Notes: a model not told the origin generated them from the letters alone. A stretch of 64,000 bases of DNA from Candidatus Binatia bacterium (GCA_036004365.1 DASYRN010000045.1:7637-71636); one strand, 5' to 3'. Positions 17,912 to 41,518 are shown, counted from the stretch's first letter. Numbers and translations: made by a program.

Positions 17912-17996
17912 TGCCTTATCCTTCATCCTTTATCTCTTATCTTTTTTTGCCACGAACACGTATCACGAACACGTTTTTTTCCGTTTTCCGCTTTCA
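17912..17996. repeat. composite intergenic repeat: F1 - heptad F2 (CACGAAC ACGTAT CACGAAC ACG) - F1
   Basis: CTTATCCTTCATCCTTTATCTCTTATC ... CACGAACACGTATCACGAACACG ... CCGTTTTCCGCTTTCATCTTTCAT, in the divergent promoter region. Confidence 0.5.
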
Positions 17997-20794: not shown

Positions 20795-20929
20795 CCAATG
20801 ATCTCCTCTTGGTCTTTTGTGAATCCATAGGACTACGCCAGAGTCGAGAATTCCCGAAGGGTCGAAATGGACGTGCGCCTGTCTTTTGCTAAGCGGTAGC
20901 TAAGAGGCAGGAGAGAGAACGCGAGGGTA

Positions 20930-21190
20930 TTATTTTGATGCCTTCTCGAGTTCGGTTTCACCGGCAATGTAAAATTCACTCTCGCGAAGTTTGATCTGGT
21001 ACAAGGTTCTGCCTTTTCGATAAACATCATCGGACGCATGGGCGGGGAGTTGGCCCACAAACACACCGTCCTTGACCTCTCCCTTTAACGACGGATCATC
21101 CTTCCATCTGACAATGTCTCCTTTTTTAAAGGAAAAGAGAAAAGAAAAGGTCTCGTCAAGCCGCGGGTCGTCGATTTTTATAAAATCCAT
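20930..21190 (-). CDS. hypothetical small protein in an AT-rich spacer
   Basis: ORF MDFIKIDDPRLDETFSFL...; no Shine-Dalgarno sequence; the other frames are also open. Confidence 0.25.
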   Translation of the reverse strand: MDFIKIDDPRLDETFSFLFSFKKGDIVRWKDDPSLKGEVKDGVFVGQLPAHASDDVYRKGRTLYQIKLRESEFYIAGETELEKASK

Positions 21191-21509
21191 AACCGATATT
21201 GTGTGGGGTAAAAATTCCTTTGTCAAAGGGGATTCGCCTAGCAAGAACCGCGGAATCAGCCATTAACGATCGCGCTGAATACGGCTGACATTTGTTGAGA
21301 ATTCTTACGCATTGGCCAGAATTGTCATTTTGGACGATCTTCGTTCCATTTAAACCACTATGAGTGCGATTCTTAACTTCACCCAAAAGACCGCAAATCC
21401 TTTAAAAAACCGCGTCTTGTGTTGCTAAGCTAAAGATTGGCATGGATTGTGCTACATCTTTTCCGCTCTTGTGGGGGGTCGAAAGAGTAAAGCAGACCTC
21501 GAAATTTTA

Positions 21510-24431: not shown

Positions 24432-24746
24432 CTACCAGCGGTCGCGCCTGCCACCTCCACCGCCACCCCTTCTATCCCCACCGAACCCTGACCGCTTCTC
24501 CTGAGGCCGCGCCTCATTGACAGTGAGATTGCGCCCGTCGAACTCGGTTCCGTTCAGAGCCTGGATCGCTTTCTGGGCCTCCGCGCCGGAGCTCATCTCG
24601 ACAAAACCAAAGCCCTTGGACCGGCCGGTGAATTTGTCGGTGATCACCCGGGCGGATTCGACGGTGCCGTGCGCCGAGAATAGTTCCTCGAGCTGCTTGT
24701 CGGTGGTCGCGTAGGACAATCCACCTACGTAGACTTTATTCGTCAT
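24432..24746 (-). CDS. RRM-type RNA-binding protein with glycine/arginine-rich tail (cold-shock Rbp-like)
   Basis: RNP2 VYVGGL and RNP1 KGFGFVEM motifs; C-terminal GGDRRGGGGGGRRD; AAGGAGGAGA Shine-Dalgarno sequence. Confidence 0.85.
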   Translation of the reverse strand: MTNKVYVGGLSYATTDKQLEELFSAHGTVESARVITDKFTGRSKGFGFVEMSSGAEAQKAIQALNGTEFDGRNLTVNEARPQEKRSGFGGDRRGGGGGGRRDRW

Positions 24747-25306
24747 GTTCTCCTCCTTTAGAAAAATGTTAGTGTCTTTCACCCTGGAATCTGATTACCG
24801 CGGGAGCAGAACATGGGGTTGGAACCCAGCGCTGGCCGGATTATCCTCCAAGGTAATACTTCGCAAGGAAAGACTCCCCCCGAGCCTTAAACTTTTATCT
24901 GTCTCACTTTCAGAAGGCCCCATACTGAAGTGACTTTAGCTTGTCTTGTTTGCCCTCTCGGTGCAACGGAGCCGGGCGCGTCCTTTATCGTGCAGACGAC
25001 GGCTCGACACGAGCCCAAGTCACTATCATTCTAGGGTCGTCCGACGCAAGAGGTAGGCGGCGCGCAAGAAAACGTTGGAACAGAATGCGCAAAGAGGCCA
25101 AGAGCTTTTTGAGCGATATAAAGGGGTGTAGGAAGCCTCCGATAGTGCCTATTAATGTCGTGTTAATGGAAGGGGAGGTTGGGTCCTCCAGGAACCAAGC
25201 ATGCTTTATGAAACGCGATCGTATCCTTTCGATGGTGGTCTCTGGGTCCGACCAGCACCTAAGGCGCATCGACTCCGGAAGAATTATTTTAACCAACCGG
25301 CGACCG

Positions 25307-25320
25307 TTTGAGAATTCTCA
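25307..25320. promoter_or_regulatory. perfect palindrome TTGAGAATTCTCAA (F4 copy 1) inside a ~30-nt conserved element
   Basis: CGACCGTTTGAGAATTCTCAAGAAGGTCAAAA; compare 28626, 30677 and 36154. Confidence 0.4.
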
Positions 25321-25577
25321 AGAAGGTCAAAATGAACAAACGCGTCAAAGATGACGTTTTTGCAATTGCGAGAGTACGAAAATGTGGTTTGAAGCCTGTC
25401 TAGCGGATCTTCTTTTATAAACGCAGTGGATGTCTGTCAAGTAGGAAAAAGGAAAAAAGGGGAGGATTTCCGAAATATCCAAAAAGCCGCGATCGTGGTC
25501 GTGAAATGTGATCAGGCAGCAGGCCGCGTTGGCGGAATAGCAAGGCAACCGATTTAATCGAGGTTTAAAAAAAAAGC

Positions 25578-25605
25578 TTGACAGCCCGCGCGACCGCGAT
25601 ATACC
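25578..25605 (+). promoter_or_regulatory. near-consensus sigma70 promoter producing a leaderless XRE mRNA
   Basis: TTGACA (25578-25583), 16-nt spacer, TATACC; predicted transcription start 1-3 nt before the ATG at 25614. Confidence 0.5.
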
Positions 25606-25613
25606 TAGGTCCC

Positions 25614-25901
25614 ATGACCGGCATGGAACTCATAAAGCTCAGAAAGCGACTGTCTATGACGCAAACCAGTCTCGCCCGCGCCGTCGGAATGAAGAGAAAA
25701 TCGGTCATTCTCATGGAGCGGGGAGAGGAGCCCATCTTAAGGACCACCGAGCTGTCGGTGAGGCTGCTGCTGCTGAAGAAGCAAGCTGCGAGGTTCGTAT
25801 TGCGGATAAAAGGGAGAAGACGCTATAGGCCCCGGCCGCGGCAAAACGGAGCTTCACTGTCAGAAATCTTGTCGCATCTTTCTACAGATAGACGGGAATA
25901 A
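25614..25901 (+). CDS. XRE-family helix-turn-helix transcriptional regulator (leaderless)
   Basis: LRKRLSMTQTSLARAVGMKRKSV HTH_3-type helix; basic C-terminal tail; no Shine-Dalgarno sequence. Confidence 0.6.
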   Translation: MTGMELIKLRKRLSMTQTSLARAVGMKRKSVILMERGEEPILRTTELSVRLLLLKKQAARFVLRIKGRRRYRPRPRQNGASLSEILSHLSTDRRE

Positions 25902-25989
25902 TCCTGACTGGCTTGAGGAGAAAAAAAAGAGACAGGCCATTTTTTCGTTGAAAACGGAAAGCTGACAACGGAAAAAGCTGCCAGCGTTT

Positions 25990-26229
25990 TCATTCCTTTC
26001 GGGCCTTTTCTCCACTTTCCCGTATTCTCTTACCGGCCTCTTTCATTGCCTCGCCGGCTTTTTCCATCGCTTGACCCGTTTGTTCCTTGGCCTTCTCCAT
26101 TGCTTGATCGACAGCCTTGCCCGTTTTTTCCATAGCACCTTTATCGTCTTCGGATTTTGAGCAGGAGCCCAAGGCAAGCGCAGACAGTCCGACGAGCAAT
26201 GCCAGGCACACGTTTTTGATCAGCTTCAT
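25990..26229 (-). CDS. small lipoprotein with AMEKAxE repeats
   Basis: MKLIKNVCLALLVGLSALALGSC lipobox-like signal; repeats KAVDQAMEKAKEQTGQAMEKAGEAMKEAG; GAGGAGGG Shine-Dalgarno sequence. Confidence 0.6.
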   Translation of the reverse strand: MKLIKNVCLALLVGLSALALGSCSKSEDDKGAMEKTGKAVDQAMEKAKEQTGQAMEKAGEAMKEAGKRIRESGEKARKE

Positions 26230-26384
26230 TTGTCGGTTACCCTCCTCGTCCAAGTCTTAGTCTAATCCCTATAATAAAAACTCTTGGCACACAAGAAAGG
26301 TTTCTTGACAATCTGGAAGGTTGCGGAATGGGTTGGTTCTCTTAATGTCACAGGGGTTAAAATCCCGTCGGGATGCCACTGGCA

Positions 26385-26666
26385 TCAGTCGGATGCCTTT
26401 GGTTTCGGCGGCCCCGGATATCGGGTAGCAGCCTGGTTTGAAAAGCCATCTAATGCGGCGAGTTGACGCGCGAGGTCGAAGATGGTGTTCTCGATGGCCA
26501 TCCTGGAGGCCTCAATCTCATCGAGCGTTGATCGCGCTATCCCTACCGCTTCCACGAGCTTTACTCCCTCGGGCCGCCTTGCCAGTATCGTGAGACGGTA
26601 ATCGGCCTGGAAAACGCGCCAGTTGAGATAGACGCTTCGCACCTCAGCCTGTAGGTCTGAGGACAT
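26385..26666 (-). CDS. hypothetical protein; possibly the 3' part of a disrupted gene whose signal-peptide start lies at 26916
   Basis: The 93-aa ORF's frame is open back to 26804 without a start codon. A signal-peptide ORF MSKTSLFTLFFLSLGLGA (26916..26860) sits in a second frame and a read-through ORF (26561..27004) in the third. Confidence 0.3.
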   Translation of the reverse strand: MSSDLQAEVRSVYLNWRVFQADYRLTILARRPEGVKLVEAVGIARSTLDEIEASRMAIENTIFDLARQLAALDGFSNQAATRYPGPPKPKASD

Positions 26667-27091
26667 ATACCGGATCGAAACGGGAGCAGCGGGATCGTCC
26701 TCCAGGACGTAGAAAAGCGCCCGGCCGACGTGGTACTCCCCCCACTTAACTCCGGAGTATCGACACTTCCCACAGCTCGGCGAGAGCCGGATCGACCTGC
26801 ACCTTTACCCTTCGCTCTGGCGGAAGCTGGTAGCGCTGGTCGAAGAGGACCGTTTGGCCTCAGGCGCCAAGCCCGAGCGAAAGGAAAAACAAAGTGAAAA
26901 GGGAGGTCTTGCTCATGAGACGATCTGCAATTTCTTAGCATCTCTCCTAAAAGAGTAAAAGCCCCCGCAAGATAAAGGATGAAGGATAAGGGAAAGATGC
27001 TCATAAGACAGCGGACTTTCGGGGCCGTTCAAAGAATTTTGCTGGTGGCCACATCGAAGCTGTGCTATGTTGGTATGAAATTTTGAGAGCG

Positions 27092-27793
27092 ATGCGAAAG
27101 ACAGGTTTTGCTGCGCGAGATTTTCTCTTCTCGTGCCGATTGATTGTTTTCTGCTTATTTTCTCTATCTTGCTCTATACCCCCGAAGATTCCCACAGTTG
27201 CCGATGAGCGGCTCGAGGCCATGGTTAGAAATGAGGCCTCCGAGATCATAGAAGTGACCCCGGATAAAGAGGAGCTTTCTCGGTATCAGATTTTTCTGTC
27301 AGCCTTTCCCCGGAAGGATATATTAGGAGTGAGTGTCGGGAACCGTCGTATTTATATCAGTTATGAGCTGGTACAACTCGCGTTCAACAGTCCCCGCTAT
27401 CGTTGGCTGCTGAGGCAGACCTTGGCCCACGAGATTGCGCATGAAATAGCGGGGCATGCGAAAGATAGGCGAGTTGTCTCCTACAGTCCTTTTACGTTCG
27501 GCCGCGGCGTGACAGGCGGAGATATCGGCCTTCCGTCGAGCGTGCGATTCCATCATTATTCGGCGGAAAAAGAACTGGAGGCGGATTTAAACGGAATGAA
27601 GTACTGGAGAAAGCTTCAGTGGGACTGCCGGATCTGGGTGCGCATCTTGAGGCAATATTTTCAGATCAACTACACGGGCGATATTTTTCATCCGACAGAC
27701 GAGCGCCTAAGACAAGCATTGAGCGTGTGCCTTCCAGAGTCAGATCCGGAGCGGATCGCTATAGAGAAGAGACTCGAGGCAGTGAGGAGGTAG
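27092..27793 (+). CDS. putative zinc metallopeptidase (HExxH, M48-like), membrane-anchored or lipoprotein
   Basis: LAHEIAHEIAGH HExxH motif; N-terminal hydrophobic LIVFCLFSLSCS. Confidence 0.5.
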   Translation: MRKTGFAARDFLFSCRLIVFCLFSLSCSIPPKIPTVADERLEAMVRNEASEIIEVTPDKEELSRYQIFLSAFPRKDILGVSVGNRRIYISYELVQLAFNSPRYRWLLRQTLAHEIAHEIAGHAKDRRVVSYSPFTFGRGVTGGDIGLPSSVRFHHYSAEKELEADLNGMKYWRKLQWDCRIWVRILRQYFQINYTGDIFHPTDERLRQALSVCLPESDPERIAIEKRLEAVRR

Positions 27794-27825
27794 GCAGGCC
27801 GATCTAAGAAAGGTACAAAGGCCCG

Positions 27826-27926
27826 TGCTCGTGATCGTGAAACGTCATCGTGACTAAAGACAAGGATGAAGTATAAGGGATGGAAGCAGAAAAAGAAGTG
27901 GACGTGATCGCGACTCGTGTGCGTGG
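27826..27926. repeat. composite repeat: heptad F2 - purine F1 - heptad F2
   Basis: CGTGATCGTGAAACGTCATCGTGAC ... GGATGAAGTATAAGGGATGGAAG ... GACGTGATCGCGACTCGTGTGCGTGG, between convergent genes. Confidence 0.45.
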
Positions 27927-27952
27927 AAACTTAGCAGACGCCTTGTGTGAGA

Positions 27953-28348
27953 TTATTGCTCTAAATCGGAAGCTCTCACCCAGCCGACAGCACCCGTCGA
28001 ACTCTTAACCATATACCACAGTCCGCTGCTACCAGCCGCCTTAGCCATTACTGTAAGCGTGTCTCCTCGCTCCAGTTTAGCGACGAGCGGTGAATACTCG
28101 TCCTGGCGGGCGTAGAGATGGACCTCGCTCTGCTTGACCGCGAGGAGAGCGGAGACCGGCGCCTGTGATCCTGCCGGAGCGTTGACGGAGTGTCTGTTTG
28201 CAGCAGGACTCCTCGTGTTTACCCCACGGCGGCTCTCCTTTAGAGCTCCGGTTTGTTTTCCGTATTCGAAGATGGCTTGAGCATCGCTTCTCTCGGCCAT
28301 AACCATGAAGAGCATGGGCACCCAAACCACGGCTAGCACGTGCTTCAT
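27953..28348 (-). CDS. secreted SH3b-domain protein
   Basis: Signal peptide; C-terminal GDTLTVM...GLWYMVKSSTGAVGWVRASDL bacterial SH3 pattern. Confidence 0.6.
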   Translation of the reverse strand: MKHVLAVVWVPMLFMVMAERSDAQAIFEYGKQTGALKESRRGVNTRSPAANRHSVNAPAGSQAPVSALLAVKQSEVHLYARQDEYSPLVAKLERGDTLTVMAKAAGSSGLWYMVKSSTGAVGWVRASDLEQ

Positions 28349-28408
28349 AGCCTCCCAATTATAGTCGCGAGAGAAGGTCGCCGCAATTCAGTGAGCGGCA
28401 CGGACAAG

Positions 28409-28510
28409 AGATGAGGGATGAATGATAAAAGATAACGGATGAAGGATCGAAGCGGAAAGAGGAAAAGAGAAAGAGAAAAAAGACCTGATCGGATTCGTGC
28501 TCGTCATCGT
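28409..28510. repeat. long purine-rich F1 tract plus an F2 unit in a 520-nt divergent control region
   Basis: GAGATGAGGGATGAATGATAAAAGATAACGGATGAAGGATCGAAGCGGAAAGAGGAAAAGAGAAAGAG ... TTCGTGCTCGTCATCGT. Confidence 0.45.
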
Positions 28511-28625
28511 AAAGGAACAGCCTTGACACGTTTTCGGCCTTCGAATAGGTTAGTTTTGGCCAAGTCGTTGATCCTCAAGAGACGTGCACGTGTTCGAGAT
28601 TCGTGTTCGTGTAAACTTGCACGTT

Positions 28626-28639
28626 TTGAGAATTCTCAA
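28626..28639. promoter_or_regulatory. perfect palindrome TTGAGAATTCTCAA (F4 copy 2) flanked by CGTGTTCG / CGTGATCG heptads
   Basis: CGTGTTCGAGATTCGTGTTCGTG...GCACGTTTTGAGAATTCTCAAAGC...CCACGATCGTCTTCGTGGAACGTGATCGTGAAC, upstream of the S1/P1 nuclease gene. Confidence 0.45.
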
Positions 28640-28870
28640 AGCTTCGAAAAGCGCCACGATCGTCTTCGTGGAACGTGATCGTGAACAAGAACTGATGCTG
28701 TTATCACTTTTACGATTGCGCAAGTGCGCAAATGAGAAAATGTCCCAAGGCGCGAGCCTTGAGGTATGAGGACAAAAGGTGAGGATGATTCAGGAGGAAC
28801 GATAGCGGAACAAGGGAAAACGGCGGGGAGAAGAGGCTGGAGAGACCGGATAATTTTTTCTACGAGGAAG

Positions 28871-29686
28871 ATGGCGGCAACAAACCGCACCCGGAGAATT
28901 AAGGGAGTGGTTCGGGTCTGCGGGCTGTTCTTCCTGTACGATCTACTTGCTGTTTCCCCCGGTTTTTCCTGGCATGACAAAGGCCATCGCGTTGTGGCGA
29001 TCATCGCCCAGGCGAATCTCACCCCGGAGGCCAAAAAACGGATTCAGGAGATAGTACCTTCAGGCACCACTCTCGCCGACGCAGCCGTCTGGCCGGACTA
29101 CGAAGGGAGAAAAGTGGGAGATTTGGATCCGCTCCACTACGTCAGTATTTCCGACGGCGCCAACGGCTACGATCAAGCGCGTGACTGTCCGGAGAAAAAC
29201 TGTATGGTTGAAGCACTCAAGTGGTTTTCATCGAACATCGCCGACGAGAATGCCCCGACCGTCATGAGACGAATCGCTCTGCGGTATGTCGCGCATCTGG
29301 TCGGTGACCTGCACCAGCCGCTGCATGCGGGCAGGGCAACGGATCGAGGCGGCACGGATATCACGGTGACGTATAGAAGACAGACGACCAACCTGCACTT
29401 CTTTTGGGATAAAGACTTAGTGGAGATGGAAGAAGGAAACGCAGAGGAGGTAGCTGAGCGGCTTGGGGCGAGCCTTACTGAAGAGGAACGTCTTAAATGG
29501 CGGGCGGGCGACCCGAAACAATGGACTGATGAGTCGCTCGTGCTTGCAAGATCCTATGCGTACCCTATAGGGGGATCCTTTGAGCTTTCTGACGACTACG
29601 TAGAAAGGGCCCGACCGATTGTGCGAGTAAGGCTTGTTCAGGCTGGGATAAGATTAGCATGGTTGCTGAACATGGCTTTCAAATAG
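28871..29686 (+). CDS. secreted S1/P1-family nuclease
   Basis: WHDKGH N-terminus after the signal peptide; HYV..D...; HLVGDLHQPLH zinc-ligand motif; GAGGAAG Shine-Dalgarno sequence. Confidence 0.8.
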   Translation: MAATNRTRRIKGVVRVCGLFFLYDLLAVSPGFSWHDKGHRVVAIIAQANLTPEAKKRIQEIVPSGTTLADAAVWPDYEGRKVGDLDPLHYVSISDGANGYDQARDCPEKNCMVEALKWFSSNIADENAPTVMRRIALRYVAHLVGDLHQPLHAGRATDRGGTDITVTYRRQTTNLHFFWDKDLVEMEEGNAEEVAERLGASLTEEERLKWRAGDPKQWTDESLVLARSYAYPIGGSFELSDDYVERARPIVRVRLVQAGIRLAWLLNMAFK

Positions 29687-29693
29687 GATTGTT

Positions 29694-30071
29694 ATGAAAC
29701 CGCACCTTGTGTCAGGGCTAGGGCTCTTGCTAGGGGTTCTTGCCGCAAAGAGCGCACCCGCCGCGATGTATTGCGGCGACACACTGATAGACAAAGGGAT
29801 GACGAAGCTGGACGTCATCTCAAAGTGTGGCCAGCCTGATTTACGGGAAGTGACCTCGCTAGTTTTCCAGGTAAGGGAGGTCTGGCACTATAACTGCGGC
29901 GAGGGCAGGCTGAACAGGAGCCTTGTCTTTGAGGGCGAGACGCTTGTATCGGTCCAGGAAAGCAAAGTTACGGCAGCGGCCCGGAGAAGTGCAAATAAAA
30001 CGGAACTAATAGCAAGGAAGCACGAGGCAGCGATACGCTTCATTCCCGGCCGGGATCGAGCTCAATGCTGA
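29694..30071 (+). CDS. DUF2845-like small secreted protein
   Basis: Signal peptide then MYCGDTLIDKGMTKLDV..KCGQPD...VW.Y pattern. Confidence 0.5.
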   Translation: MKPHLVSGLGLLLGVLAAKSAPAAMYCGDTLIDKGMTKLDVISKCGQPDLREVTSLVFQVREVWHYNCGEGRLNRSLVFEGETLVSVQESKVTAAARRSANKTELIARKHEAAIRFIPGRDRAQC

Positions 30072-30321
30072 TGAGCTCGTAGCGTTCCGAAGAATACTCT
30101 CCCCGTTGTCTCAGGCTTTCTCGACGTTGGCGGTCGAGCACGGCGTGGTCCTGGTGTATCCGCTGCTGTTGTTCGTCCTGCCTCTGTTCTCGAACCTGGA
30201 GAAGTTCACCGACGGGAGCACCAGCCCCTCGCTCAAGGCTACTACAACCGATAGGAGTCATTAGAAGAGTTACCGCAATCAACTCTATAGAGAGGTTCTT
30301 CGCGTAACCAAACCGAATCAT
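30040..30321 (-). CDS. small Q/R-rich lipoprotein (putative)
   Basis: LLMTPIGCSS lipobox-like signal; convergent 32-nt overlap with the preceding gene lowers confidence. Confidence 0.35.
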   Translation of the reverse strand: MIRFGYAKNLSIELIAVTLLMTPIGCSSLERGAGAPVGELLQVREQRQDEQQQRIHQDHAVLDRQRRESLRQRGEYSSERYELISIELDPGRE

Positions 30322-30676
30322 AATCCTCCTCCTCGAGATTTTGGTGCAAGGGCTTTTGCCCGAGACAGCTGACGCGATGCAAGCGATATACCAAGGGCCA
30401 GAATAATTAAACCGTGGATTGTTAAAGGGATTGGAAGTTCGGCTCTTCTGACACGGTCCCTAATTGTTATGGAAAGGCCTAAATTGTACCGTCAAGTAAC
30501 TTGATCGTTGTCTAAGAGGAATGGGATCCTCGTCTTGATCTTGGATTCTTGAGCCAGGTCACCCGGTCTGCCATGTGTATCTTGGCGATCCAAGAAAGGG
30601 ACGAGGCAAGAGGTGATAGGCGATAGTTTTTAGTCGCTCTCGCAACTATTGTATATTATAACATGGCTCTCGCGTT

Positions 30677-30690
30677 TTGAGAATTCAAAA
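30677..30690. promoter_or_regulatory. degenerate F4 copy 3 (TTGAGAATTCAAAA)
   Basis: CGCGTTTTGAGAATTCAAAAATGTAAAAAC; left half intact, right half mutated. Confidence 0.3.
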
Positions 30691-30746
30691 ATGTAAAAAC
30701 GAGTTAATGATGGAATCTTGCCCTATACGATTGTAACATTGGATAG

Positions 30747-30893
30747 GACCGAATTGCCGGCTTGATGACTTCCTATGGATACGCGAATATTCTCCACGCC
30801 GGTTTCTGCGCCTTGGAGCTTCTTGAATGGGAAGTCGATCAGGTTTTGGGCGTTGGGCCTTTCACGTCCGCCGAATTGCGCGCCGATCGTTAG
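30747..30893 (+). pseudogene. 3' remnant of a YciI-like gene (decayed paralog of 35809..36117)
   Basis: Translates to DRIAGLMTSYGYANILHAGFCALELLEWEVDQVLGVGPFTSAELRADR*; the full gene ends ERIAGSDPYTKAGFCAFELFEWEVHQVLGVGPFTSAELRAHR*. The last ~50 nt are about 94% identical. Confidence 0.55.
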
Positions 30894-30941
30894 CAGTTGG
30901 AGATTCACATCTTCGGCGGAAGATTTGAGAAGGAGGTATCC

Positions 30942-31031
30942 ATGTTGGCCATTCTTCCCCCGCTGATAATGATTCTTCTCGTAGCTCTTATTTTCTATCT
31001 TGCCTGGTGGGACGCTAACAGACGTAAGTAG
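30942..31031 (+). CDS. 29-aa hydrophobic single-TM peptide (MLAILPPLIMILLVALIFYLAWWDANRRK)
   Basis: Strong AAGGAGGT Shine-Dalgarno sequence 6 nt before the ATG; the same context as the hup (HU) gene; not in the >=60-aa ORF track. Confidence 0.45.
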   Translation: MLAILPPLIMILLVALIFYLAWWDANRRK

Positions 31032-31155
31032 AAGTAAAAAGGCGTTGGGACAGCCATTGTGCGTCGGGCAATTCAATCGGAGCTAACGTTGAGGACGCAA
31101 AGCAGCACAAAGTGGCCGAGTTTATCACCGAAGGTAAGACAAGAAAGGAGAATCT

Positions 31156-31605
31156 ATGCCGAGAGTGACTTCGTTGGGTCATGTAGGCCTTTACGTGGGC
31201 GACATTGAGCGTTCCAAGGCATTTTATCGGGATATCCTTGGCCTGAAGGTGAGCGACGAGAGTCCCAACAGGGGCGCAGTATTCATGACGGCCAAAGACC
31301 GGCTGGAAGAGCACCACGAGCTCCTGCTCATGCCGGGCCGAGAGGATGGCAAAGTCGTCCAGCAAGTTTCTTTCCGCTGTGCCAGCCTCGCCGATATCAA
31401 AGACTTTTACCGAGTTTTTTTGCAGAACAAAATCCCCATCAACCGCATCGTAAGCCACGGCAATGCTATAGGGATCTATTTTCAAGATCCCGACGGAAAC
31501 CAGATCGAAGTTTACTGGCCCACCGGCATCGACTGGCCCCAGCCCTTTGGGAAGCCGGTCGACCTGGCCGTAACCGACGAGGAGATCCTTGCGCAGCTGA
31601 CGTAG
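31156..31605 (+). CDS. VOC-family (glyoxalase / extradiol dioxygenase fold) protein
   Basis: HVGLYVGDIERSKAFYRDILGL; AAGGAG Shine-Dalgarno sequence; the antisense ORF 31015..31485 is judged a shadow. Confidence 0.8.
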   Translation: MPRVTSLGHVGLYVGDIERSKAFYRDILGLKVSDESPNRGAVFMTAKDRLEEHHELLLMPGREDGKVVQQVSFRCASLADIKDFYRVFLQNKIPINRIVSHGNAIGIYFQDPDGNQIEVYWPTGIDWPQPFGKPVDLAVTDEEILAQLT

Positions 31606-31636
31606 CCTGTAAGGCGGGCCTTAAAAAGTAAAAGCA

Positions 31637-32164
31637 ATGTCGAAACGACTGATTTTCCTCCCATGGATGTTGTCTCTACTTCTGCTACCGGCCTGCATCC
31701 ATGGCCTAACGATGCACTCCATGGACGGAGAGACCTTAAGCGGAAAGTATCGTTTCGCGCGCGAAGGCAAAGGATTGATCAAGGTCATCCGATCCGATGG
31801 CGAGGTCTTGACGGGCCATTTTGTGACGGTTGGGCCGAAGGCTTTTGTCGAGAGTTTCAAGAAGGCTTTCGGCAGCGGATCTATCGTTGTCTTCGGTCCC
31901 GATGCCTCCGCTTACGGAAATGCCTTCGGAGGCACCTTTGCAAGTGCGCACGGGACTGCAGGGGCTGCCTATGGCGAGACGTTCAATACCGGCTCCGGTC
32001 AATCCACAACCGTGGTGACCGGGCCGCGTTTTTACTGGACGGCATTCCTTCAGGGCAGTGGAGGAACAACGATGGCATGTTTTTTCATCGGCTCCTCGTA
32101 TACGGGTCACGGATTTGGAAGATGTAAGAGCAACATGGGGAAGGAGTATAGTGTAGAGTTTTAA
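31637..32164 (+). CDS. glycine-rich lipoprotein
   Basis: LLLLPAC lipobox; Gly/Ala/Thr-rich mature region. Confidence 0.55.
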   Translation: MSKRLIFLPWMLSLLLLPACIHGLTMHSMDGETLSGKYRFAREGKGLIKVIRSDGEVLTGHFVTVGPKAFVESFKKAFGSGSIVVFGPDASAYGNAFGGTFASAHGTAGAAYGETFNTGSGQSTTVVTGPRFYWTAFLQGSGGTTMACFFIGSSYTGHGFGRCKSNMGKEYSVEF

Positions 32165-32523
32165 GATCTCTAGTCTTTTTTCAGAGGTCAAAATAAATAG
32201 TAGATGAGCGTGCTCGATCCTGCCATTGTCTCACGTTTGCGTGATTGCGACGAAGAAACAGTGGCCTGTCGGCCCGGATATCTGAGCGGTCGGGGACGGA
32301 TACTCCTCCTGCGTTGTCTCTAACCGAATTTCCGGAGAGTTGTTCATAATTGTCATATTGGACGGTTTCGGTCCACTTACCACGAGCCCTTATTCGACTT
32401 GTGAGCGGGAAATCCTTTTTAAAAACCACATATTGTATTGATAGGCCAAAATAAGGGCCTTTGGCATGAATTATGAATCTTATCCACTATATAGGCCCAT
32501 CTATCTTAAGAGAGCGATCCCTT

Positions 32524-33954
32524 ATGCGAGACGTCGCAATAGCAACCGAGGCAGCATCACTTTCCAAGGAATGTCCTGGATGTGGCGCTCTCCTGGAACT
32601 GACTCTCGAGGCGTGCTGGAAATGCGGCGGAAAAGTCGAACCGGATATTCCCACAGCGCCGTACGAAGAGAAACGACCCTTCAAGCCCTATCTAGACAGA
32701 AGCGCCGACCTTGGAAGAGAGGTCTACGAACGGCTTATCCAAGCCTTTTCAGAAGTGAATCCCCGCGAAAGACCCTGGTGTGGCATAGGGGTTAAAGCTG
32801 ACCTTCTCGCGGTATCACCAAGATCCGTGACAGTCGCGGTGATAAAGGAGCTGAGCGGGGTCAAGAAAGGCCTCGTTCATGTCTCGCAGAATTGGCGGGA
32901 ACCTTGGCAGGTAGAAACCGTCGATAGGGAGAAACATCAGATACGAAGCAATCCTTGCGAGCAGGCGGAGCGGGCGATCAGCGCTGTCAAAAGTAGTCTC
33001 AAGTCTTTTCTCAAGGCCAATGAGCAGGCTGTATTCCCGCGCATAAAGTGTTTAATCGTTTTCCCCGATGGATACGACTTTGAAGGGCCAAAGGATTTTT
33101 CCATGCTCGACCACGACGGGGTGATCACGCTGAGTCTACTAAACTTTCGTGATTTACCGGATGCGATATTACGACCGACGGACCACGAAGGACTGGATTC
33201 CCGGCAGTACAGGAAATGGATTGAAGAACTTCTAAGGAGCAACGATGAGTCCACCCTCGGGACATGGCTTGATCCGGCCTTCGATAAGCCGGAGCCGGAG
33301 CCGCCCAAGAGACAGCTCTGGCGGTTACGTTATCCGCGCCGCCGAAAAGTGCCGGCAAAGGAAGAGGAACTCTCTTGGTCAAATAGTCCGCGAAAGAGAT
33401 CGGTCCAGGCGAAATTGAAGGGGACTCGACTCAAATTTACCGTGACGGTTATCACGGGTATGCTCGTTGGAATGGTCGGATGGCAAATGTATAGTGTTGG
33501 GGAACATACCGCGCCGCCTCCACGCGCGGAAACTACCCCTGAAGTCACTCAAGCGGTGCCACCCCAAGATGTCCCGTTGTCAACGGAACTCGAGAAGGAG
33601 GAGATATTGCCTCCGCCGCAGCCAGTAGAATCCCGCGAACCGCAGGCGCCTATAGCGCCGAAAGAGGATCAACCCATCAAAGGCGCGAATAAATCTGAGG
33701 TCACCCGCACTCAGGCTCCTGGCGATTTAGAGCTCAAGCGGCAGAAGGTGGAACTCAAGATCCATGATGCTATTCTCCGTCGCGCGATCACCGGTGTGAC
33801 GGTTTACTTCGCCGGGGACACGGCTTACCTCCGCGGCCAGGTCGAGACCGAAAACCAAAAATCTGCTGCCGAAAAGGCCGCGAGGAGCGTCCCGGGGGTT
33901 AAGGAAATCCGCAATTCAATTGAGGTCAATCCCCCATCCCCTGCGGATGGCTAG
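32524..33954 (+). CDS. zinc-ribbon - NERD (nuclease-related domain) - transmembrane - Pro-rich linker - BON domain protein
   Basis: CPGCG...CWKCGG ribbon; NERD pattern DLLAVSPRSVTVAVIKEL...NP.EQ...I; TM segment LKFTVTVITGMLVGMVGW; C-terminal VYFAGDTAYLRGQVETENQKSAAEKAARSVPGVKEIRNSIEV BON. Confidence 0.7.
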   Translation: MRDVAIATEAASLSKECPGCGALLELTLEACWKCGGKVEPDIPTAPYEEKRPFKPYLDRSADLGREVYERLIQAFSEVNPRERPWCGIGVKADLLAVSPRSVTVAVIKELSGVKKGLVHVSQNWREPWQVETVDREKHQIRSNPCEQAERAISAVKSSLKSFLKANEQAVFPRIKCLIVFPDGYDFEGPKDFSMLDHDGVITLSLLNFRDLPDAILRPTDHEGLDSRQYRKWIEELLRSNDESTLGTWLDPAFDKPEPEPPKRQLWRLRYPRRRKVPAKEEELSWSNSPRKRSVQAKLKGTRLKFTVTVITGMLVGMVGWQMYSVGEHTAPPPRAETTPEVTQAVPPQDVPLSTELEKEEILPPPQPVESREPQAPIAPKEDQPIKGANKSEVTRTQAPGDLELKRQKVELKIHDAILRRAITGVTVYFAGDTAYLRGQVETENQKSAAEKAARSVPGVKEIRNSIEVNPPSPADG

Positions 33955-34030
33955 CCTGATGACGGCCAGATAACACTTCGCTTTTCCTTCAGATCAAAGT
34001 AAAGAGCAGCGAGCGTCCGCTGACTGTCCC

Positions 34031-34486
34031 TCAAGTTTGATTACTAATGAACTGAAATATCTTTGCAGCGGCGTCAGCGCCGGTCGTCGTTGTCGTGTCG
34101 ATTCTTATAGTCGGATTGTTCGGCGGCTCCATTCGATGGAACATGATGTGGAGTGCTTTTTCGGATATATTCGGCTGCCGTTCTCGATTGCGCCGAAGAG
34201 CGACCTCTAAGGGGCAATCAAGAAAAACGGTTACAACTCTCTCCGCTTGTGCCCGCGCTTTGACCTGGCACCGCCATTCCTTTTTGTAAAACGTGGCGTC
34301 AAAAATTAGGAAATCCGTTCTCCTCCGATCGGGCGCCAGCGCATTGAAAAACTTCCGGTAGACCGGCGGTCTTAGCCTGTCGGAACTCAAGATCTGAACG
34401 CTGCCTAATTCAGCGAGGCGCTCGGCCAGCTTTTCTGCTATCGTACTCTTACCCGATCCGGGAATGCCGCAAAAGAGAATAATCAA
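34031..34486 (-). CDS. small P-loop kinase of the AAA_33 / polynucleotide-kinase-like family
   Basis: Walker A GIPGSGKST at residues 7-15; downstream SSDRLR and ALRRNRERQ resemble the T4 Pnk kinase lid (LVKRNSKRG); TTG start; 151 aa. Confidence 0.7.
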   Translation of the reverse strand: MIILFCGIPGSGKSTIAEKLAERLAELGSVQILSSDRLRPPVYRKFFNALAPDRRRTDFLIFDATFYKKEWRCQVKARAQAERVVTVFLDCPLEVALRRNRERQPNISEKALHIMFHRMEPPNNPTIRIDTTTTTGADAAAKIFQFISNQT

Positions 34487-34514
34487 TAAGATATGTTCGT
34501 GACGCCGCGCTGGG

Positions 34515-34772
34515 CTATCGGCGGGGTCGGGCGAGCCTCATCGCTTGCTCAATGGTGGGAATGATCTCGGGGCAACATTGCCTGGCGATTTCGAGAATGA
34601 TGCGCGCTTGGTTCTGGTCACAGGGGATCGTGTAGCCTTTAAAAAATACGCCCTCAAACGAATGATCAATTCGCGTGGCCTTGGCAATGGCCTCATAGGC
34701 GGGAGACTCAACGGGAATTCGACTCCGCAGTCGGTCAAAGTGTGGAGGAGCGACCTTAATGAATATCTCCAT
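34515..34772 (-). CDS. hypothetical 85-aa alpha/beta protein, kinase partner
   Basis: Ends 28 nt upstream of the kinase; no recognised family; conserved-looking cysteines CDQ...QCCPE. Confidence 0.5.
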   Translation of the reverse strand: MEIFIKVAPPHFDRLRSRIPVESPAYEAIAKATRIDHSFEGVFFKGYTIPCDQNQARIILEIARQCCPEIIPTIEQAMRLARPRR

Positions 34773-34894
34773 GGCGCCACCTCACCAAAAATACGTTAGG
34801 ATGCTCAATTCAACCTACCAAATAGGGCCGTTATTTCAATGCGGGTCCGTCAACCTTCACCGGTCGAGTTTCCCAAAACCCGCTCGTCAAGGCA

Positions 34895-35350
34895 TCACAC
34901 TCTAGTAGCAAAACGGATCGCATCGATATTAGGTAAGCAAGAGCGGCATTGGGTGACGTGTGCGACGGCGGCGTCCAAATCCCAGCCGCAGCACCAAGAG
35001 AGATACGCGACCGCGACCGTAGGAGATCGGCCAGCGCCGGCGGAGCAATGGAGATAGACTGTATGGCCAGACTCCATGAGCTCGTTTAGCGCGGACACGC
35101 ACGCCGGGAGCTTGTCTTGCAGATCGACTGGGTCCAAGTCGCGCACTGGGACACGACAAGGGTGAATGCGGCAGATTTGGTAGTGGGTTGCCAGCGAATT
35201 CCAATCCAGGCTAAAGTGCTGCATGTCCTCGTCGGTTTGTAGATTGAGCACAGCCGAAATGGCGGCATCGCGCTTTAATATCTCGATGTCACCAGCGCTT
35301 CCTGGGTAGGAACCGACAAAGAGTTTGGAAAGAATCTGATGGTAATCCAT
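34895..35350 (-). CDS. dual-specificity (VHR-like, CX5R) protein phosphatase
   Basis: HCSAGAGRSPTVAVAYL P-loop with catalytic C and R; general acid D upstream; 151 aa. Confidence 0.8.
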   Translation of the reverse strand: MDYHQILSKLFVGSYPGSAGDIEILKRDAAISAVLNLQTDEDMQHFSLDWNSLATHYQICRIHPCRVPVRDLDPVDLQDKLPACVSALNELMESGHTVYLHCSAGAGRSPTVAVAYLSWCCGWDLDAAVAHVTQCRSCLPNIDAIRFATRV

Positions 35351-35444
35351 AGCTTGGGTAGGTCGTAAGGAGTGAGGCGTAAACAGGAGAACCCCTTGCA
35401 CGTTTTACGTTTCACTAGCCATGACTATCATCCTGACGTTACGG

Positions 35445-35666
35445 TCACGGACTCTCTTTGACGGCGAGAAGTGAGGCCAGCGGGCACAACACTTTGTATT
35501 CGGCTTTGCCTGTTTTTTCTTTCCAGCTGGCGGCGCCTGGAGCTCCGTCAATGAATTCGTAAGCATCCACGCCGAATGTGCTTTTACCGTCAATCAGCAG
35601 GACTTCGTGCCATCCGTCGGCAAGCAGCACATAACGCACTTTCTCTACATTGAGCTTCAGAGCCAT
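35445..35666 (-). CDS. hypothetical 73-aa beta-rich protein, first gene of the phosphatase/kinase operon
   Basis: AAGGAGG Shine-Dalgarno sequence; family not recognised. Confidence 0.55.
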   Translation of the reverse strand: MALKLNVEKVRYVLLADGWHEVLLIDGKSTFGVDAYEFIDGAPGAASWKEKTGKAEYKVLCPLASLLAVKESP

Positions 35667-35808
35667 GTTTTGCCTCCTTTCCTCAGGATCCGAACGTTGC
35701 GTTCGAGGTTCCTTGTCGTGATATTTTATCAGGATTCAAGGCTCGCTCCAGGGGTAGGCCCGCTAAGGGGTAAAGGATGCAATAAACTATAAAAGCTAGG
35801 AGGACAGC

Positions 35809-36117
35809 ATGTGGTATCTGATCCATCGTAAGCCCATACGACCGCGTGAGGAATGGACCGTGAGTCTCGACGAGCATCTTGTCTGGATGAAACAGCAGCA
35901 CGAGGCCGGCCGGATCCTTTTTTCCGGCCCGACCCGGGATCGCACGTTGGGGATTTACGCGATACGCGCCGGCTCCAGGGAAGAAGCCGAGCGGATCGCC
36001 GGCAGCGATCCTTACACGAAGGCCGGTTTCTGCGCTTTCGAGCTTTTTGAGTGGGAGGTGCACCAAGTTTTGGGCGTCGGGCCTTTCACGTCCGCCGAAT
36101 TGCGCGCCCATCGCTAG
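35809..36117 (+). CDS. YciI-like (dimeric alpha/beta barrel) protein
   Basis: 102 aa; YLI..K...R.E... HL.W pattern of the YciI family; AGGAGG Shine-Dalgarno sequence. Confidence 0.75.
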   Translation: MWYLIHRKPIRPREEWTVSLDEHLVWMKQQHEAGRILFSGPTRDRTLGIYAIRAGSREEAERIAGSDPYTKAGFCAFELFEWEVHQVLGVGPFTSAELRAHR

Positions 36118-36153
36118 CGGTCTACAAGGAGCTCAGAAGAGCACTTTCACCGT

Positions 36154-36167
36154 TTGAGAATTCTCAA
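36154..36167. promoter_or_regulatory. perfect palindrome TTGAGAATTCTCAA (F4 copy 4)
   Basis: CACCGTTTGAGAATTCTCAAGAGTCAAAAGG, about 37 nt after the YciI-like stop and between convergent genes. Confidence 0.4.
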
Positions 36168-36200
36168 GAGTCAAAAGGATTTGGGAACAAGAAAAGGACT

Positions 36201-36938
36201 TTAAGAAGGGTTCTTTCTTGTGGGAGGAACGATTCTAGCCTGTTCGATGGCGGGTTTGGCCGCTTCCTTATGAGGGCGAGCTAGCTGGTCTGGAGCGTCG
36301 GTCGTTTTAGGCTGACCTTCTATTGTTTGTCTTAGAATTTCCTCTTGCAGCGAACCTTTATTGTTCCCAGCTACGGGCTTTCCCGTCTCAATGTCGTCAT
36401 TGATGAAAACTGCGGCTGCAAAGACAGTCGTCCAGAGCCCATCTTTATTGCCAACGGCAGACTGAGTGATATTGGTAGTACGGACGATCTTGCCGGACAT
36501 CTTGAAAAGTTGCTCGCGCTCGTCCCAATCCAATTCAGGATCAAATTCAATCCCCAGGGTAGTCGCGAGCATGCTGGCGGCGAGGTCTTCCGCATATTCT
36601 CCCGCTCGTTCATCGGTTTCTCCAAACGAATGATGCTCGGAAAGATAACCGTGCATGGAAGAATCCGCGGGGATCGCCAAGCCGATAGAAGCTGCGATGA
36701 GACGATTTGGCTCGTTGTTACTTTCTCGATCATAAACGGCAAATACAATCTCTCCGGGCCGTAAGAGCTTTAATCCTTCCTCCTTGGAGATAATCTTGCA
36801 GGCTGGGGGATAGATGCTGGAGACGAGAACCAAATTGCAGTGGGCCAAGCCGGCAACCCGCAGCGCCATCTCAAAGGAGGCCAACCGTTCCTTATGAACG
36901 CCGACTCCTTTGGTGAAAAAAACTTTCTTAGGAACCAT
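36201..36938 (-). CDS. pdaD: pyruvoyl-dependent arginine decarboxylase (PdaD) with ~70-aa low-complexity C-terminal extension
   Basis: [42 protein letters not shown] matches the PdaD N-terminus including the self-cleavage serine region. Confidence 0.7.
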
Positions 36939-37076
36939 ATGTGGCTGCATTTTAACATGACGAAAATGAGCTGACAAGAAAATTTCTTATCCTGAGATTA
37001 TTTTTATTGACATTCGCTTGCTCATGATCTAGAGGCTTAACAAGATCACCAAAACAAGTTGGAGGAGGTATCCACG

Positions 37077-37346
37077 ATGACCAAGGCTGACCTCATCAAT
37101 GTAGTGGCCAGGGCGGCAAGGATGAGCAAGAGAGGAGCGGAAGACGCCATCAATGCAACCTTTGATGCTCTGACCAAAGGCATCAAGAAGGACAAACGGT
37201 TTCAGGTGCCGGCGTTCGGCACCTTCTCGGTCAGGGCACGGAAGGCAAGGCCGGGAAGGAATCCTCGGACGGGCGAGGCCATCACTATCAAGGCGAGTCG
37301 AACGGTGGGTTTCAAGCCGGCACCCAGGCTAAAGAAGGGCCTCTAG
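37077..37346 (+). CDS. hup: HU/IHF-family DNA-binding protein
   Basis: MTKADLINVVA...GFGTF.VR.R.AR.GRNP.TGE; GGAGGAGGT Shine-Dalgarno sequence; promoter-like TTGACA at 37011. Confidence 0.85.
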   Translation: MTKADLINVVARAARMSKRGAEDAINATFDALTKGIKKDKRFQVPAFGTFSVRARKARPGRNPRTGEAITIKASRTVGFKPAPRLKKGL

Positions 37347-39883: not shown

Positions 39884-39934
39884 GGTTGGTTCTAAATCTG
39901 TGGTCGATAAATGATTCATTTATCTAGATCTTCG

Positions 39935-40123
39935 TTACGCGGATCCGGGATCGTTGTCATCGTCGGTTGATGGTTTTCTAGAACGGACGTTGAATTGGAT
40001 CTTGGATAGTTCCGAGTCCAGCCACCGCATCCTTTTGAGAGTATCCTCTCGGAAAAGCTGTGGACTGTCGTAGCCGCGGTACACTTCACACCTCTGGGTT
40101 GTGACTCCAGGTAAACGGAAAGC
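39935..40123 (-). pseudogene. start-less remnant paralogous to 37377..37670
   Basis: Open frame AFRLPGVTTQRCEVYRGYDSPQLFREDTLKRMRWLDSELSKIQFNVRSRKPSTDDDNDPGSA* bounded by an upstream stop; about 72% nt identity to 37495-37570. Confidence 0.4.
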
Positions 40124-40348
40124 TTACACAATGAATCCGGCGTAGCTTGTCGGGCAACCCTATCAATGCGCAATGGCTGTGCCAGACCAGAAGATTCGTA
40201 TTATCGAATAGTTGTAAAAGTTCAGCCATGACGAGATGGGTAAAAAGGTAAGAGCTGGGAAGAAATTACGCGATAAGTAAGAGTAGAGACTGCAAATTAT
40301 AGCTGGAGGATTGCTCCTTTGGGCGTTTCCTCTAACGTGGGCTTTTCA

Positions 40349-40378
40349 CGTTTCGACTATTTTCGAAATGTCGAAACG
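40349..40378. repeat. F3 hairpin: CGTTTCGAC - TATTTTCGAAAT - GTCGAAACG
   Basis: Perfect 9-nt inverted repeat; the loop is itself palindromic around TTCGAA; upstream of the LLM gene. Confidence 0.4.
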
Positions 40379-40444
40379 ATGAGCGGCGCTTGTTCGGACA
40401 AGCGATTGACTCATTTGATGCGGCTGTGATAGCGCTCGAAAGCC

Positions 40445-41518
40445 ATGTCAGGCGAAAGTTTCCGTGGCGAGATCGGACTCCACTTTCCGTTGCATGTCCT
40501 TAACCGCTACTCTCTCCCCGAGCTGATCCGCCTTGCGGAACGCGCTGTGGAGGCACTTCGACAGTTCGGCTTCACGCAGATCTGGACCAACGATAATCTA
40601 GAGTATCGAAGCGTTTTGGCGAGCTCCGCTGCACTCGTGGCGCGGGTTCCGGTCAAGCTCGGAACGGCCGTCACCGTTCCCTATTTTCGCAACCCCATCG
40701 ATCTGGCCGCGGCGTTCGTCACTCTCTCCGAACTCACAAACGGGCAGGAAATCTCGCTTGGCCTGGGACCCGGCTCGAGGTCGATCCTGACCCATCAAGT
40801 CGATCGTGTGAAGCCGCTGATCATCATGGCCGAGTTGGCGACGGCTCTGCGGAAGCTCTTCGATGGAAAGGCAATCGGGCGCAATGAAATTCCGAATTTG
40901 GCTTCCTATTTTCACTTGAACGCGGAAAGTTACACTTTGCGCTTCAAGGCCCAGTCGCCGATCCGGCTTTACTATGGTCCAAGCCTGCTCAAGCCCGCGG
41001 TCTTAAATCTAATCGGATGCCACTTCGATGGGGTCATCCTGCAAACTCTGTATAGCGGGGCGGATATGGAGGCTACGCTCTCGAGTCTGAAACGTGCCCG
41101 CGCACAGTCCGCTCTAAGGGAGCCGCTAGCTAAAATCATGCTTATCAACGCGTCCGTTTCTCGCGACGGACGGGCGGCGAGAGAGCACGCCAAGCGCTTC
41201 GTGTCCCACATCATCGCCGGATGGCCGGACGACACCCTCCAAAGGAAAGGCATTGACCCAGCCTCCGTTCAGTCGGTGCGCCGAGCCTACGCTCAGAACC
41301 GCGGAGTGGATTATGCGGCGTCGCTGACTCCGGAGGAAGCGGTGGACCGTCTGGTCGTCGCTGGCACGCCGGAGCAGTGCATCGAACGGATCTCCGAACT
41401 CTTTTCCACCGGCGCGAAGCACGAATTCGGGCAGATCTTTATCGGCGTGCCACTTGGACCCGATGTCGGTGAAGTGATCGATATCTGGGCTAAAGAGATC
41501 CTGCCGGCTCTTTCGTAA
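40445..41518 (+). CDS. LLM-class (luciferase-like) flavin/F420-dependent oxidoreductase
   Basis: 357 aa TIM-barrel LLM pattern. Confidence 0.8.
   Translation: MSGESFRGEIGLHFPLHVLNRYSLPELIRLAERAVEALRQFGFTQIWTNDNLEYRSVLASSAALVARVPVKLGTAVTVPYFRNPIDLAAAFVTLSELTNGQEISLGLGPGSRSILTHQVDRVKPLIIMAELATALRKLFDGKAIGRNEIPNLASYFHLNAESYTLRFKAQSPIRLYYGPSLLKPAVLNLIGCHFDGVILQTLYSGADMEATLSSLKRARAQSALREPLAKIMLINASVSRDGRAAREHAKRFVSHIIAGWPDDTLQRKGIDPASVQSVRRAYAQNRGVDYAASLTPEEAVDRLVVAGTPEQCIERISELFSTGAKHEFGQIFIGVPLGPDVGEVIDIWAKEILPALS

Follow-up and report, generated by a model that had tools for sequence, protein, structure and literature searches.

We describe here a family of short palindromic DNA elements found in a 64,000-nt stretch of a Candidatus Binatia bacterium (GCA_036004365.1 DASYRN010000045.1:7637-71636; this whole stretch is called the window below). 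Sequence comparisons suggest that these elements are probably the operators of a family of winged-helix proteins of the ArsR/SmtB type, 99 amino acids (aa) long and encoded by leaderless genes. This protein family is common in Candidatus Binatia and was also found in at least one metagenome-assembled genome (MAG) of the Acidobacteriota.

An earlier note, made from the window alone, had reported four copies of a 14-nt palindrome. The 14-mer TTGAGAATTCTCAA is present exactly three times, at 25308-25321 (not 25307-25320, as first given), 28626-28639 and 36154-36167, while the fourth copy, at 30677-30690, is TTGAGAATTCAAAA, with two mismatches. As claimed, the palindrome exceeds chance expectation, with zero occurrences across 100 dinucleotide-preserving shuffles of the window, and the extended flanks shared by the copies are real. 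When up to three mismatches to the 14-mer were allowed, 11 matches were obtained versus 3.4 ± 1.6 expected, including near-matches at 30677 (two mismatches), 21295 (two) and 20844 (three), of which the latter two are absent from the note, and at 51961 (three). The match at 51961 corresponds to a weaker copy that the note had placed at about 51945; it is present as TCGGGAATTCTCGA, at 51961-51974. A symmetrised weight matrix, trained on seven window sites and then used to score those very sites (and therefore partly circular), gave seven sites scoring at least 18.8, all of them intergenic, and nothing else in the window above 11. The EcoRI sequence GAATTC, contained in the palindrome, occurs 21 times versus 12.9 expected, with 7 of these sites inside the seven weight-matrix sites. 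GAATTC is thus not avoided, which removes the objection that the motif might reflect a restriction target; this candidate explanation was rejected also because some classes of the element carry CAATTG instead.

The element is not confined to the window: further copies occur in MAGs of Candidatus Binatia and in metagenomes from soil. A search of species-representative genomes with the core plus the right flank returned 54 loci, ∼45 of them in MAGs annotated as Candidatus Binatia or ‘Deltaproteobacteria bacterium', with several often falling in one MAG (we estimate that about three chance matches would be expected). A class-neutral pattern added at least 120 further soil-metagenome contigs, and the collected set comprises 272 element copies at 157 loci (794 kb). 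Window genes share 70-80% DNA identity with some of the MAGs from the genome search, and window proteins have matches on soil-metagenome contigs. A literature search on the element sequences and on Binatia repeats or integrons matched only primers. In Rfam 15, no match was found for the window, and one array gave only FourU, at 21 bits versus a gathering score of 60.

Aligned copies define an element of ∼42 nt, with the consensus TCATTTYGAC-STTT-YSRS-AATT-SYSR-AAAS-GTGRAAGT read on the strand that in most cases is also that of the adjacent genes; some loci contain perfect 34-nt palindromes. Its central dyad, ACSTTT-YSRS-AATT-SYSR-AAASGT, spans 24 bp (about 12-2-12) and has a self-complementary centre. 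The AATT centre is invariant, whereas the four bases on each side vary symmetrically, yielding at least six classes: TTGAG, TCGGG, TCGAG, TCCGG, TTCGC (with centre CAATTG), TCGAC and, found later, TTGAC. Symmetry was quantified in 86 copies chosen for having at least 11 of 15 palindromic positions, a threshold that would admit asymmetric cores, of which few were seen. Paired bases occupied 89.1% of cells versus 82.1 ± 0.5% in shuffles, and changes on both sides were found in 113 cells, compared with 42.6 ± 6.3 after shuffling and much smaller numbers in slid controls. The pairs flanking AATT were UA54/CG30, AU58/GC24, GC75/CG9 and GC72/CG8. Across the five inner pairs, departures of the wobble type (4) were not favoured over other mismatches (8). 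A self-complementary AATT is, in our interpretation, what a two-fold-symmetric duplex site requires. The outer arms are near-palindromic apart from two constant departures from symmetry: −13 and +13 both carry G, and the T at −17 stands opposite a G at +17. These departures give each copy an orientation. These arms also resemble further half-sites (ATTTYGAC / GTTTYSRS-AATT-SYSRAAAC / GTGRAAGT in alignment A1, the last being the reverse complement of ACTTYCAC), a likeness that hints at four binding units per element.

The candidate protein emerged from the genes that precede the elements. Because crude calling of open reading frames (ORFs) was noisy, a codon-usage filter and homology clusters were used for gene contexts instead. 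Among 82 distinct ORFs terminating just before an element, the commonest family, with 11 members, was a 99-aa winged-helix protein of the ArsR type; the remainder were mainly Phd, ParE, ORF6N, HicA, NYN, DUF5615 and NERD, plus a few housekeeping genes. The protein matches HTH_20/HTH_5 and NF033788 (42-49 bits versus an NCBIfam cut-off of 55), and no specific family model fits it. Binatia and one Acidoferrales MAG supplied the 438 homologues recovered by a protein search, many of which carry the ArsR-family name. With few exceptions, the regulator gene stands between two sites of its own class. In the main arrangement, the centre of the upstream site lies 55-61 nt (mostly 58-61) before the start, and the site adjoins a TTGACA-17/18-TAGAt promoter whose ATG is leaderless. 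A second subfamily has the upstream site closer, its centre 26-29 nt from the start, where it directly overlaps the −10 region/core promoter. The downstream site is centred about 24-31 nt (mostly 27-31) after the stop, so that the element begins a few bases past the stop codon.

The residues that vary between regulators align with the recognition helix of SmtB (1r22) and CmtR (2jsc). In 25 regulator genes, the helix type agrees with the class of the flanking sites. In all, six helix types pair with six core classes, listed here together with the QISTVSVHL homologue that was fetched later:

Helix SV[ASG]T[VI]S[IN]HL, HVSAISIHL or QVSTVSIHL: site class TTGAG
S-I-H-L-type helices overall: site class TTGAG/TTGAN
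Gln-containing helix SVQT[IV]Sx[HL]L: site class TCGGG/TCGAG
Helix QISTISSHL: site class TCGAC
Helix QISTVSVHL: site class TTGAC
Helix SVQRVSTVL: site class TCCGG
Helix SV[PST]R[TV]SN[IV]L: site class TTCGC

As a fresh test of this correspondence, contexts were fetched for helix variants absent from the first set. The homologue with QISTVSVHL carried a previously unseen symmetric core, TTGAC, on both sides. That with QISTISSHL had TCGAC upstream, as predicted, and a hybrid site downstream. In the Acidoferrales MAG, the regulator with helix RTIQTVSTHL was followed, past its stop, by a TCGAG site and preceded by a TTGAG/TCGAG hybrid; the 20 kb contain no other site than the two that bracket the regulator gene, which adjoins a PLD-helicase/Eco57I-type methylase operon. 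Two regulator paralogues coexist in the array of locus L184, each with its own class: the S-I-H-L paralogue is bracketed by TTGAT/TTGAC and the Gln paralogue by TCGGG. Regulator genes stand directly upstream of a PLD-SNF2 helicase, an Eco57I/MmeI-type methylase, an AAA protein and an S8 peptidase at L181 (10698-20300), and of BrxB and BrxC/PglY at L184 (18706-20300). At L058 (4083-4739), a 23S_rRNA_IVP gene (4256-4621) lies within a split regulator gene, whose N-terminal part occupies 4739-4647 and C-terminal part 4157-4083.

From these observations we infer that the protein binds the element, with repression or a transcriptional roadblock as the outcome. A dimer, or a pair of dimers, would occupy the 24-bp dyad, with the recognition helix reading the four bases beside the invariant AATT, so that protein variants and site classes would form cognate pairs. 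Such pairs predict the observed helix-to-class pattern, which a freely varying stem does not, and the symmetric covariation would then be the footprint of a two-fold-symmetric dimer. The regulator gene would presumably be autorepressed through the site at its own promoter. Further sites lie where small accessory modules of one orientation meet (toxin-antitoxin pairs, nucleases, ORF6N, stress proteins and BREX/DISARM-like operons), and there the bound protein might repress the next promoter and/or block read-through. The proposal that the palindrome is a dimeric operator would thus stand in kind, given that core classes co-vary with the recognition helix and that the regulator gene is flanked by its own class. 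Its suggested partner found no support: across the related loci, the XRE protein at 25614 is nowhere associated with the element. The window copies would be targets of regulators whose genes lie outside the window, and that this genome carries the regulator we likewise infer.

The window contains seven clear copies and one weak copy, as scored with a covariance model, R1, that was built from 86 copies (six of them window sites); the element is here ∼42-48 nt long. The copies and their contexts are the following:

28609-28656 (−): best window copy, R1 51.4 bits, E 1.6 × 10−11, core TTGAGAATTCTCAA at 28626-28639; divergent region between an SH3_3 gene (27953-28348, −) and an S1/P1 nuclease gene (28766-29686, +) (Pfam)
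28700-28747 (−): weak degenerate second copy, TCATTTGCGCACTTGCGCAATCGTAAAAGTG, R1 20.9 bits, E 0.003; 20-66 nt upstream of the S1/P1 nuclease start
25291-25339 (−): copy with small flank indels, R1 40.7 bits, core TTGAGAATTCTCAA at 25308-25321; between an RRM_1 gene (24432-24782, −) and the XRE gene (25614-25901, +); an uncalled 67-aa ORF (25345-25548, −) terminates 30 nt ahead of its centre
36137-36183 (−): copy, R1 38.1 bits, core TTGAGAATTCTCAA at 36154-36167; between convergent YCII (35809-36117, +) and pyruvoyl arginine decarboxylase (36201-36977, −) genes, its centre 40 nt past the stop of the latter
30660-30706 (−): degenerate copy, R1 34.6 bits, core TTGAGAATTCAAAA at 30677-30690; centre 39 nt past the stop of a 117-aa ORF (30723-31076, −); overlapped by TTCTCA-17-TATAAT on the minus strand
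40336-40383 (−): copy with altered centre TCGTTTCGACATTTCGAAAATAGTCGAAACGTGAAAAG, R1 32.2 bits, E 2.5 × 10−6, absent from the earlier note; between a gene of unknown kind (39916-40173, −) and a luciferase-like monooxygenase gene (40445-41518, +) (Pfam)
20827-20874 (−): second-class copy, R1 27 bits, core TCGAGAATTCCCGA at 20844-20857; centre 57 nt upstream of the CDP-alcohol phosphatidyltransferase start (20794, −) and 80 nt past the stop of an ORF at 20930-21244 (−)
51944-51991 (+): second-class copy, R1 48.1 bits, E 1.2 × 10−10, core TCGGGAATTCTCGA at 51961-51974; divergent region between a terpene-cyclase-like gene (51198-51845, −) and dinB (52092-53183, +) (Pfam), its centre 124 nt upstream of dinB
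21295-21308 (no strand assigned): TTGAGAATTCTTAC, a 12/14 core match without the conserved flanks

The last site gave no R1 match at E up to 10 and probably lies outside the element family. Of the eight copies, seven are on the minus strand, the exception being the plus-strand copy upstream of dinB. Three copies (25291, 30660 and 36137) each lie 30-40 nt past the end of a minus-strand ORF, and those at 28609/28700, 40336 and 51944 occupy three divergent promoter regions. The copy at 28609-28656 lies, as described before, in the region between the SH3-domain and S1/P1 nuclease genes, and it is possible that it controls the nuclease gene. Relative to the family consensus, the window copies have eroded flanks, and they fold at only about −12 kcal/mol.

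The genes around these copies form an island with many small stress-type proteins (LEA_4-like, RRM_1, HU, BON with a weak NERD-domain match, YCII, glyoxalase and SCO4226-like; coordinates in the island: 25990-26253, −; 24432-24782, −; 37059-37346, +; 32473-33954, +). The YCII gene shares a 100-nt stretch of its 3′ part with a second location (30798-30897 and 36022-36121, 87% identity), and the YCII-type copy at 30775-30966 is apparently a truncated remnant. It had been proposed that two of the elements, those with cores at 30677 and 36154, flank this duplication, but their positions relative to it are not equivalent. Tracts of CATCCTT/TATCCTT lie directly upstream of several genes (14548-14591, 16669-16720, 17914-17959, 44458-44516, 26969-26987 and 28408-28447); read along the gene strand, these tracts are the purine-rich AAGGATGAAGGATAAAGG. 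They are present in Binatia loci too and may represent leaders of the Shine-Dalgarno-rich or GGA-motif kind. Short tandem CGTGATCGTG / CACGARCACG motifs adjoin elements in the window (25489-25514, 27825-27850 and 28656-28681), and on the reverse strand of L126 (3200-3400 and 5620-5760) ∼30-nt units, CACGARCACG..CACGTCTTTTCTCCGGT, are repeated five to six times between cassettes. Runs of TTGAAC with ∼10-nt spacing, which may be a further binding-site array, follow elements at L008, L022, L024, L043, L044, L052, L055 and L056; around position 2910 of L052, a Phd-type antitoxin ORF apparently lacks a stop and reads through the element. The window as a whole has 2.3 times more CGATCG than expected and no ACTAGT; strong depletion also affects other palindromes that contain CTAG or are AT-rich.

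Several observations weigh against an operator, or at least against a symmetric operator as the whole explanation. No homologue of the regulator was found by tblastn in the 64-kb window. Hybrid or off-class sites flank some regulators (L181 upstream, L183 downstream, L095 and L144), and the match between helix and site could come in part from common descent of the gene and its flanks, because site classes follow protein clades. Consensus copies fold stably (−26 kcal/mol, z −5.9). Neighbouring copies are co-oriented in 96 cases and not in 6, and copies are co-oriented with flanking genes at about 4:1. At least 45 of 250 copies start 2-7 nt past a stop codon, a placement that a symmetric operator does not explain, any more than it explains copies between convergent genes (such as that at 36137-36183) or the conserved asymmetry of the outer arms. 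Finally, homology tends to break at the element: among the ends of blastn high-scoring segment pairs (HSPs) of at least 85% identity between contigs, 43 of 236 coincide with element edges versus about 2% expected, equally from both sides.

Several of these features would fit a hairpin at gene 3′ ends, similar to repetitive extragenic palindromes (REPs), which would act as a terminator or mRNA stabiliser and perhaps be spread by a transposase, its link to the winged-helix protein being co-inheritance only. REPs of the GTAG/CGTC families are short imperfect palindromes that mostly follow closely on ORFs, in spacers of unidirectional or convergent gene pairs, and at times form doublets (Di Nocera et al. 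2013, PMC3733652). Our elements are likewise imperfect palindromes of ∼42 nt with compensatory changes, and their distribution (35 unidirectional, 14 convergent and 13 divergent gene pairs) matches that pattern. Their centres lie 23-28 nt past a sense-strand stop in 45 copies, with no antisense peak, and tandem doublets and triplets occur. The stable folding of the consensus also fits, and the gene-direction strand folds better in 57 cases versus 20, although this difference is partly a product of how orientation was defined. What such a hairpin leaves unexplained is that the core class follows the recognition helix, even for two classes in one array, and for this reason the RNA hairpin was downgraded as the leading interpretation. 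Moreover, the loop is invariant and self-complementary, there is no U-tract, and the REP tags GTAG/CGTC are not found unpaired: the ends read TCATTT... and ...GRAAGT, and the opposite-strand CGTC sits inside a paired arm. The genome scan found at most seven strict copies per MAG, clustered rather than dispersed, and Rfam gave no match. Searches by tblastn with E. coli RayT and IS200 TnpA detected no match in 357 + 437 kb, with the limited sensitivity of single query sequences. We regard a REP-like hairpin as unlikely.

The homology breaks and the changing neighbours of modules would instead suit a recombination or boundary site of a cassette array, operated by a dedicated enzyme or by homologous recombination, with the winged-helix protein as a possible accessory or boundary protein. 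Dense co-oriented arrays do exist: L184 has 18 co-oriented sites in 20 kb of toxin-antitoxin modules leading into BREX genes, and L126 has at least nine copies in 6.5 kb. Their cargo is typical of chromosomal integrons (Phd, ParE, HicA, BrnT, zeta toxin, DUF433, ORF6N and glyoxalase), and the modules [regulator], [ParE-Phd], [HicAB] and [ORF6N] have different neighbours in different MAGs. However, the elements lack the RYYYAAC/GTTRRRY boxes of attC sites; the consensus has GTT...AAC, the inverse order, with no AAC...GTT at its ends. At 42-48 nt they are shorter than attC (about 55-141 nt), and they have equal arms and a conserved mismatch but no bulged bases. Neither an IntI1-like match nor any other tyrosine recombinase was detected by tblastn in about 800 kb, and the Pfam gene calls of two 20-kb contexts (L181 and L184) contain no Phage_integrase. 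The cassettes have their own promoters, and breakpoints may reflect recombination between any dispersed repeats. The sole indel polymorphism beside an element (L009 versus L017) lacks a second bounding element and is uninformative. The suggestion of a recombination site or MITE was accordingly not established, the hallmarks of attC and REP sites being missing and no integrase, RAYT or IS200-type gene appearing in about 800 kb, and we consider a recombination site improbable as the explanation of the element. Edge breakpoints and shifting module neighbours nevertheless make a boundary, roadblock or recombination role possible besides protein binding, and some role of the elements in module shuffling may be envisaged, given that homology breaks exactly at them.

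It is very improbable, by contrast, that the element is an operator of the XRE protein (25614-25901), or an SOS/stress box for dinB, the S1/P1 nuclease gene and related genes. In its favour, one copy lies about 290 nt from the XRE gene and others are upstream of dinB and of the S1/P1 nuclease gene, and TTGA-N6-TCAA is an FNR/FixK-like pattern that the TTGAG class fits. Yet TCGGG, TTCGC and other classes do not fit an FNR box, and XRE genes do not recur beside elements in the 157 related loci, where ArsR-type winged-helix genes and toxin-antitoxin genes are found instead. The XRE protein itself resembles an antitoxin-type HTH. No LexA or Crp/Fnr gene was detected among the ∼60 window ORFs scanned, all of them beyond the first 18 kb. 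SOS/LexA, FNR/FixK and CtsR-like boxes, which the element resembles, were rejected as candidates on these same grounds of class misfit and absence of such a regulator from the scanned ORFs.

Other candidates were tried and rejected. A self-contained sigma-70 promoter was considered on account of a TTGAGA −35-like sequence, but a −10 accompanies only two copies (25314..25286 and 30683..30655), and no fixed −10 is conserved across 50 copies. For an ECF-type promoter (GGAAC...CGTC), the 25-nt spacer is too long. A fixed spacing between element and downstream start codon was dismissed as a general feature, no overall peak being seen; only for the regulator gene is this distance constant. The start codon that a conserved opposite-strand ATGA would provide after the element opens only short ORFs, and a Rho-type C-rich tract downstream amounts to a weak pyrimidine excess. 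As an intrinsic terminator, the hairpin is followed by GTTYCC or AAATGA and not by a U-tract, and no site of a terminator scan coincides with an element copy.

If the operator interpretation is true, the element would be the first regulatory motif, together with its likely protein, for Binatota, a widespread soil phylum without cultured members. The helix and site classes would further provide a natural series of cognate helix/operator pairs, with at least six specificities on one scaffold, and thus a candidate recognition code. The layout, with sites at toxin-antitoxin and defence junctions, a few bases past stops, in one direction and coinciding with homology breakpoints, suggests insulation or shuffling of accessory genes. 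A broader proposal, which taken as a whole seems quite doubtful, is that Binatia and relatives harbour an unrecognised type of cassette array with these elements as its boundary sites. Every small module, whether of toxin-antitoxin, defence or stress type, would terminate in an oriented ∼42-bp site to which a class-specific winged-helix protein binds; the bound protein would insulate the modules, which would be exchanged at the sites without an integron integrase. Such a platform would resemble an integron while following another logic of site and protein.

Compared with known systems, the element resembles REPs in being an imperfect palindrome mostly placed just past ORFs, with occasional doublets. 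It differs in its longer stem (about 16 bp versus 8-9 bp), in the tie between core class and a DNA-binding protein, in its apparently low, clustered copy number and in that no RAYT was found. Integron attC arrays share the co-oriented, toxin-antitoxin-rich small cassettes, each followed by a conserved imperfect palindrome, and the shuffling of modules between genomes; in contrast, our elements are too short and lack R boxes, no integrase was found, and the cassettes have promoters of their own. Among defence regulators, BrxR/CapW proteins of defence islands carry WYL-type sensor domains. The regulator described here is similarly placed directly upstream of BREX-like (L184) and PLD-helicase/methylase (L181) operons, but it is a bare 99-aa winged-helix protein with dozens of sites. 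The C proteins of restriction-modification systems are small HTH proteins on mobile defence modules, with a palindromic operator (C-box) at their own gene and operators specific to each protein group, all features shared with our family. C proteins have, however, an XRE-type fold, and C-boxes lie only upstream of the C gene, whereas here the protein is of the ArsR type and sites are also found after stops and throughout arrays. The closest counterparts in kind are the ArsR/SmtB autorepressors (SmtB, CzrA and CmtR), likewise small winged-helix proteins with a palindromic site of ∼24-26 bp at their own promoter. Unlike them, the present family has several specificity classes coexisting in a genome, another site immediately past the stop codon, many more sites at accessory-gene junctions, and outer arms that are asymmetric and oriented. 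Most likely, then, the autoregulator is of a known kind, and what is unusual is the coexistence of several specificities and the placement of their sites at the junctions of accessory modules.

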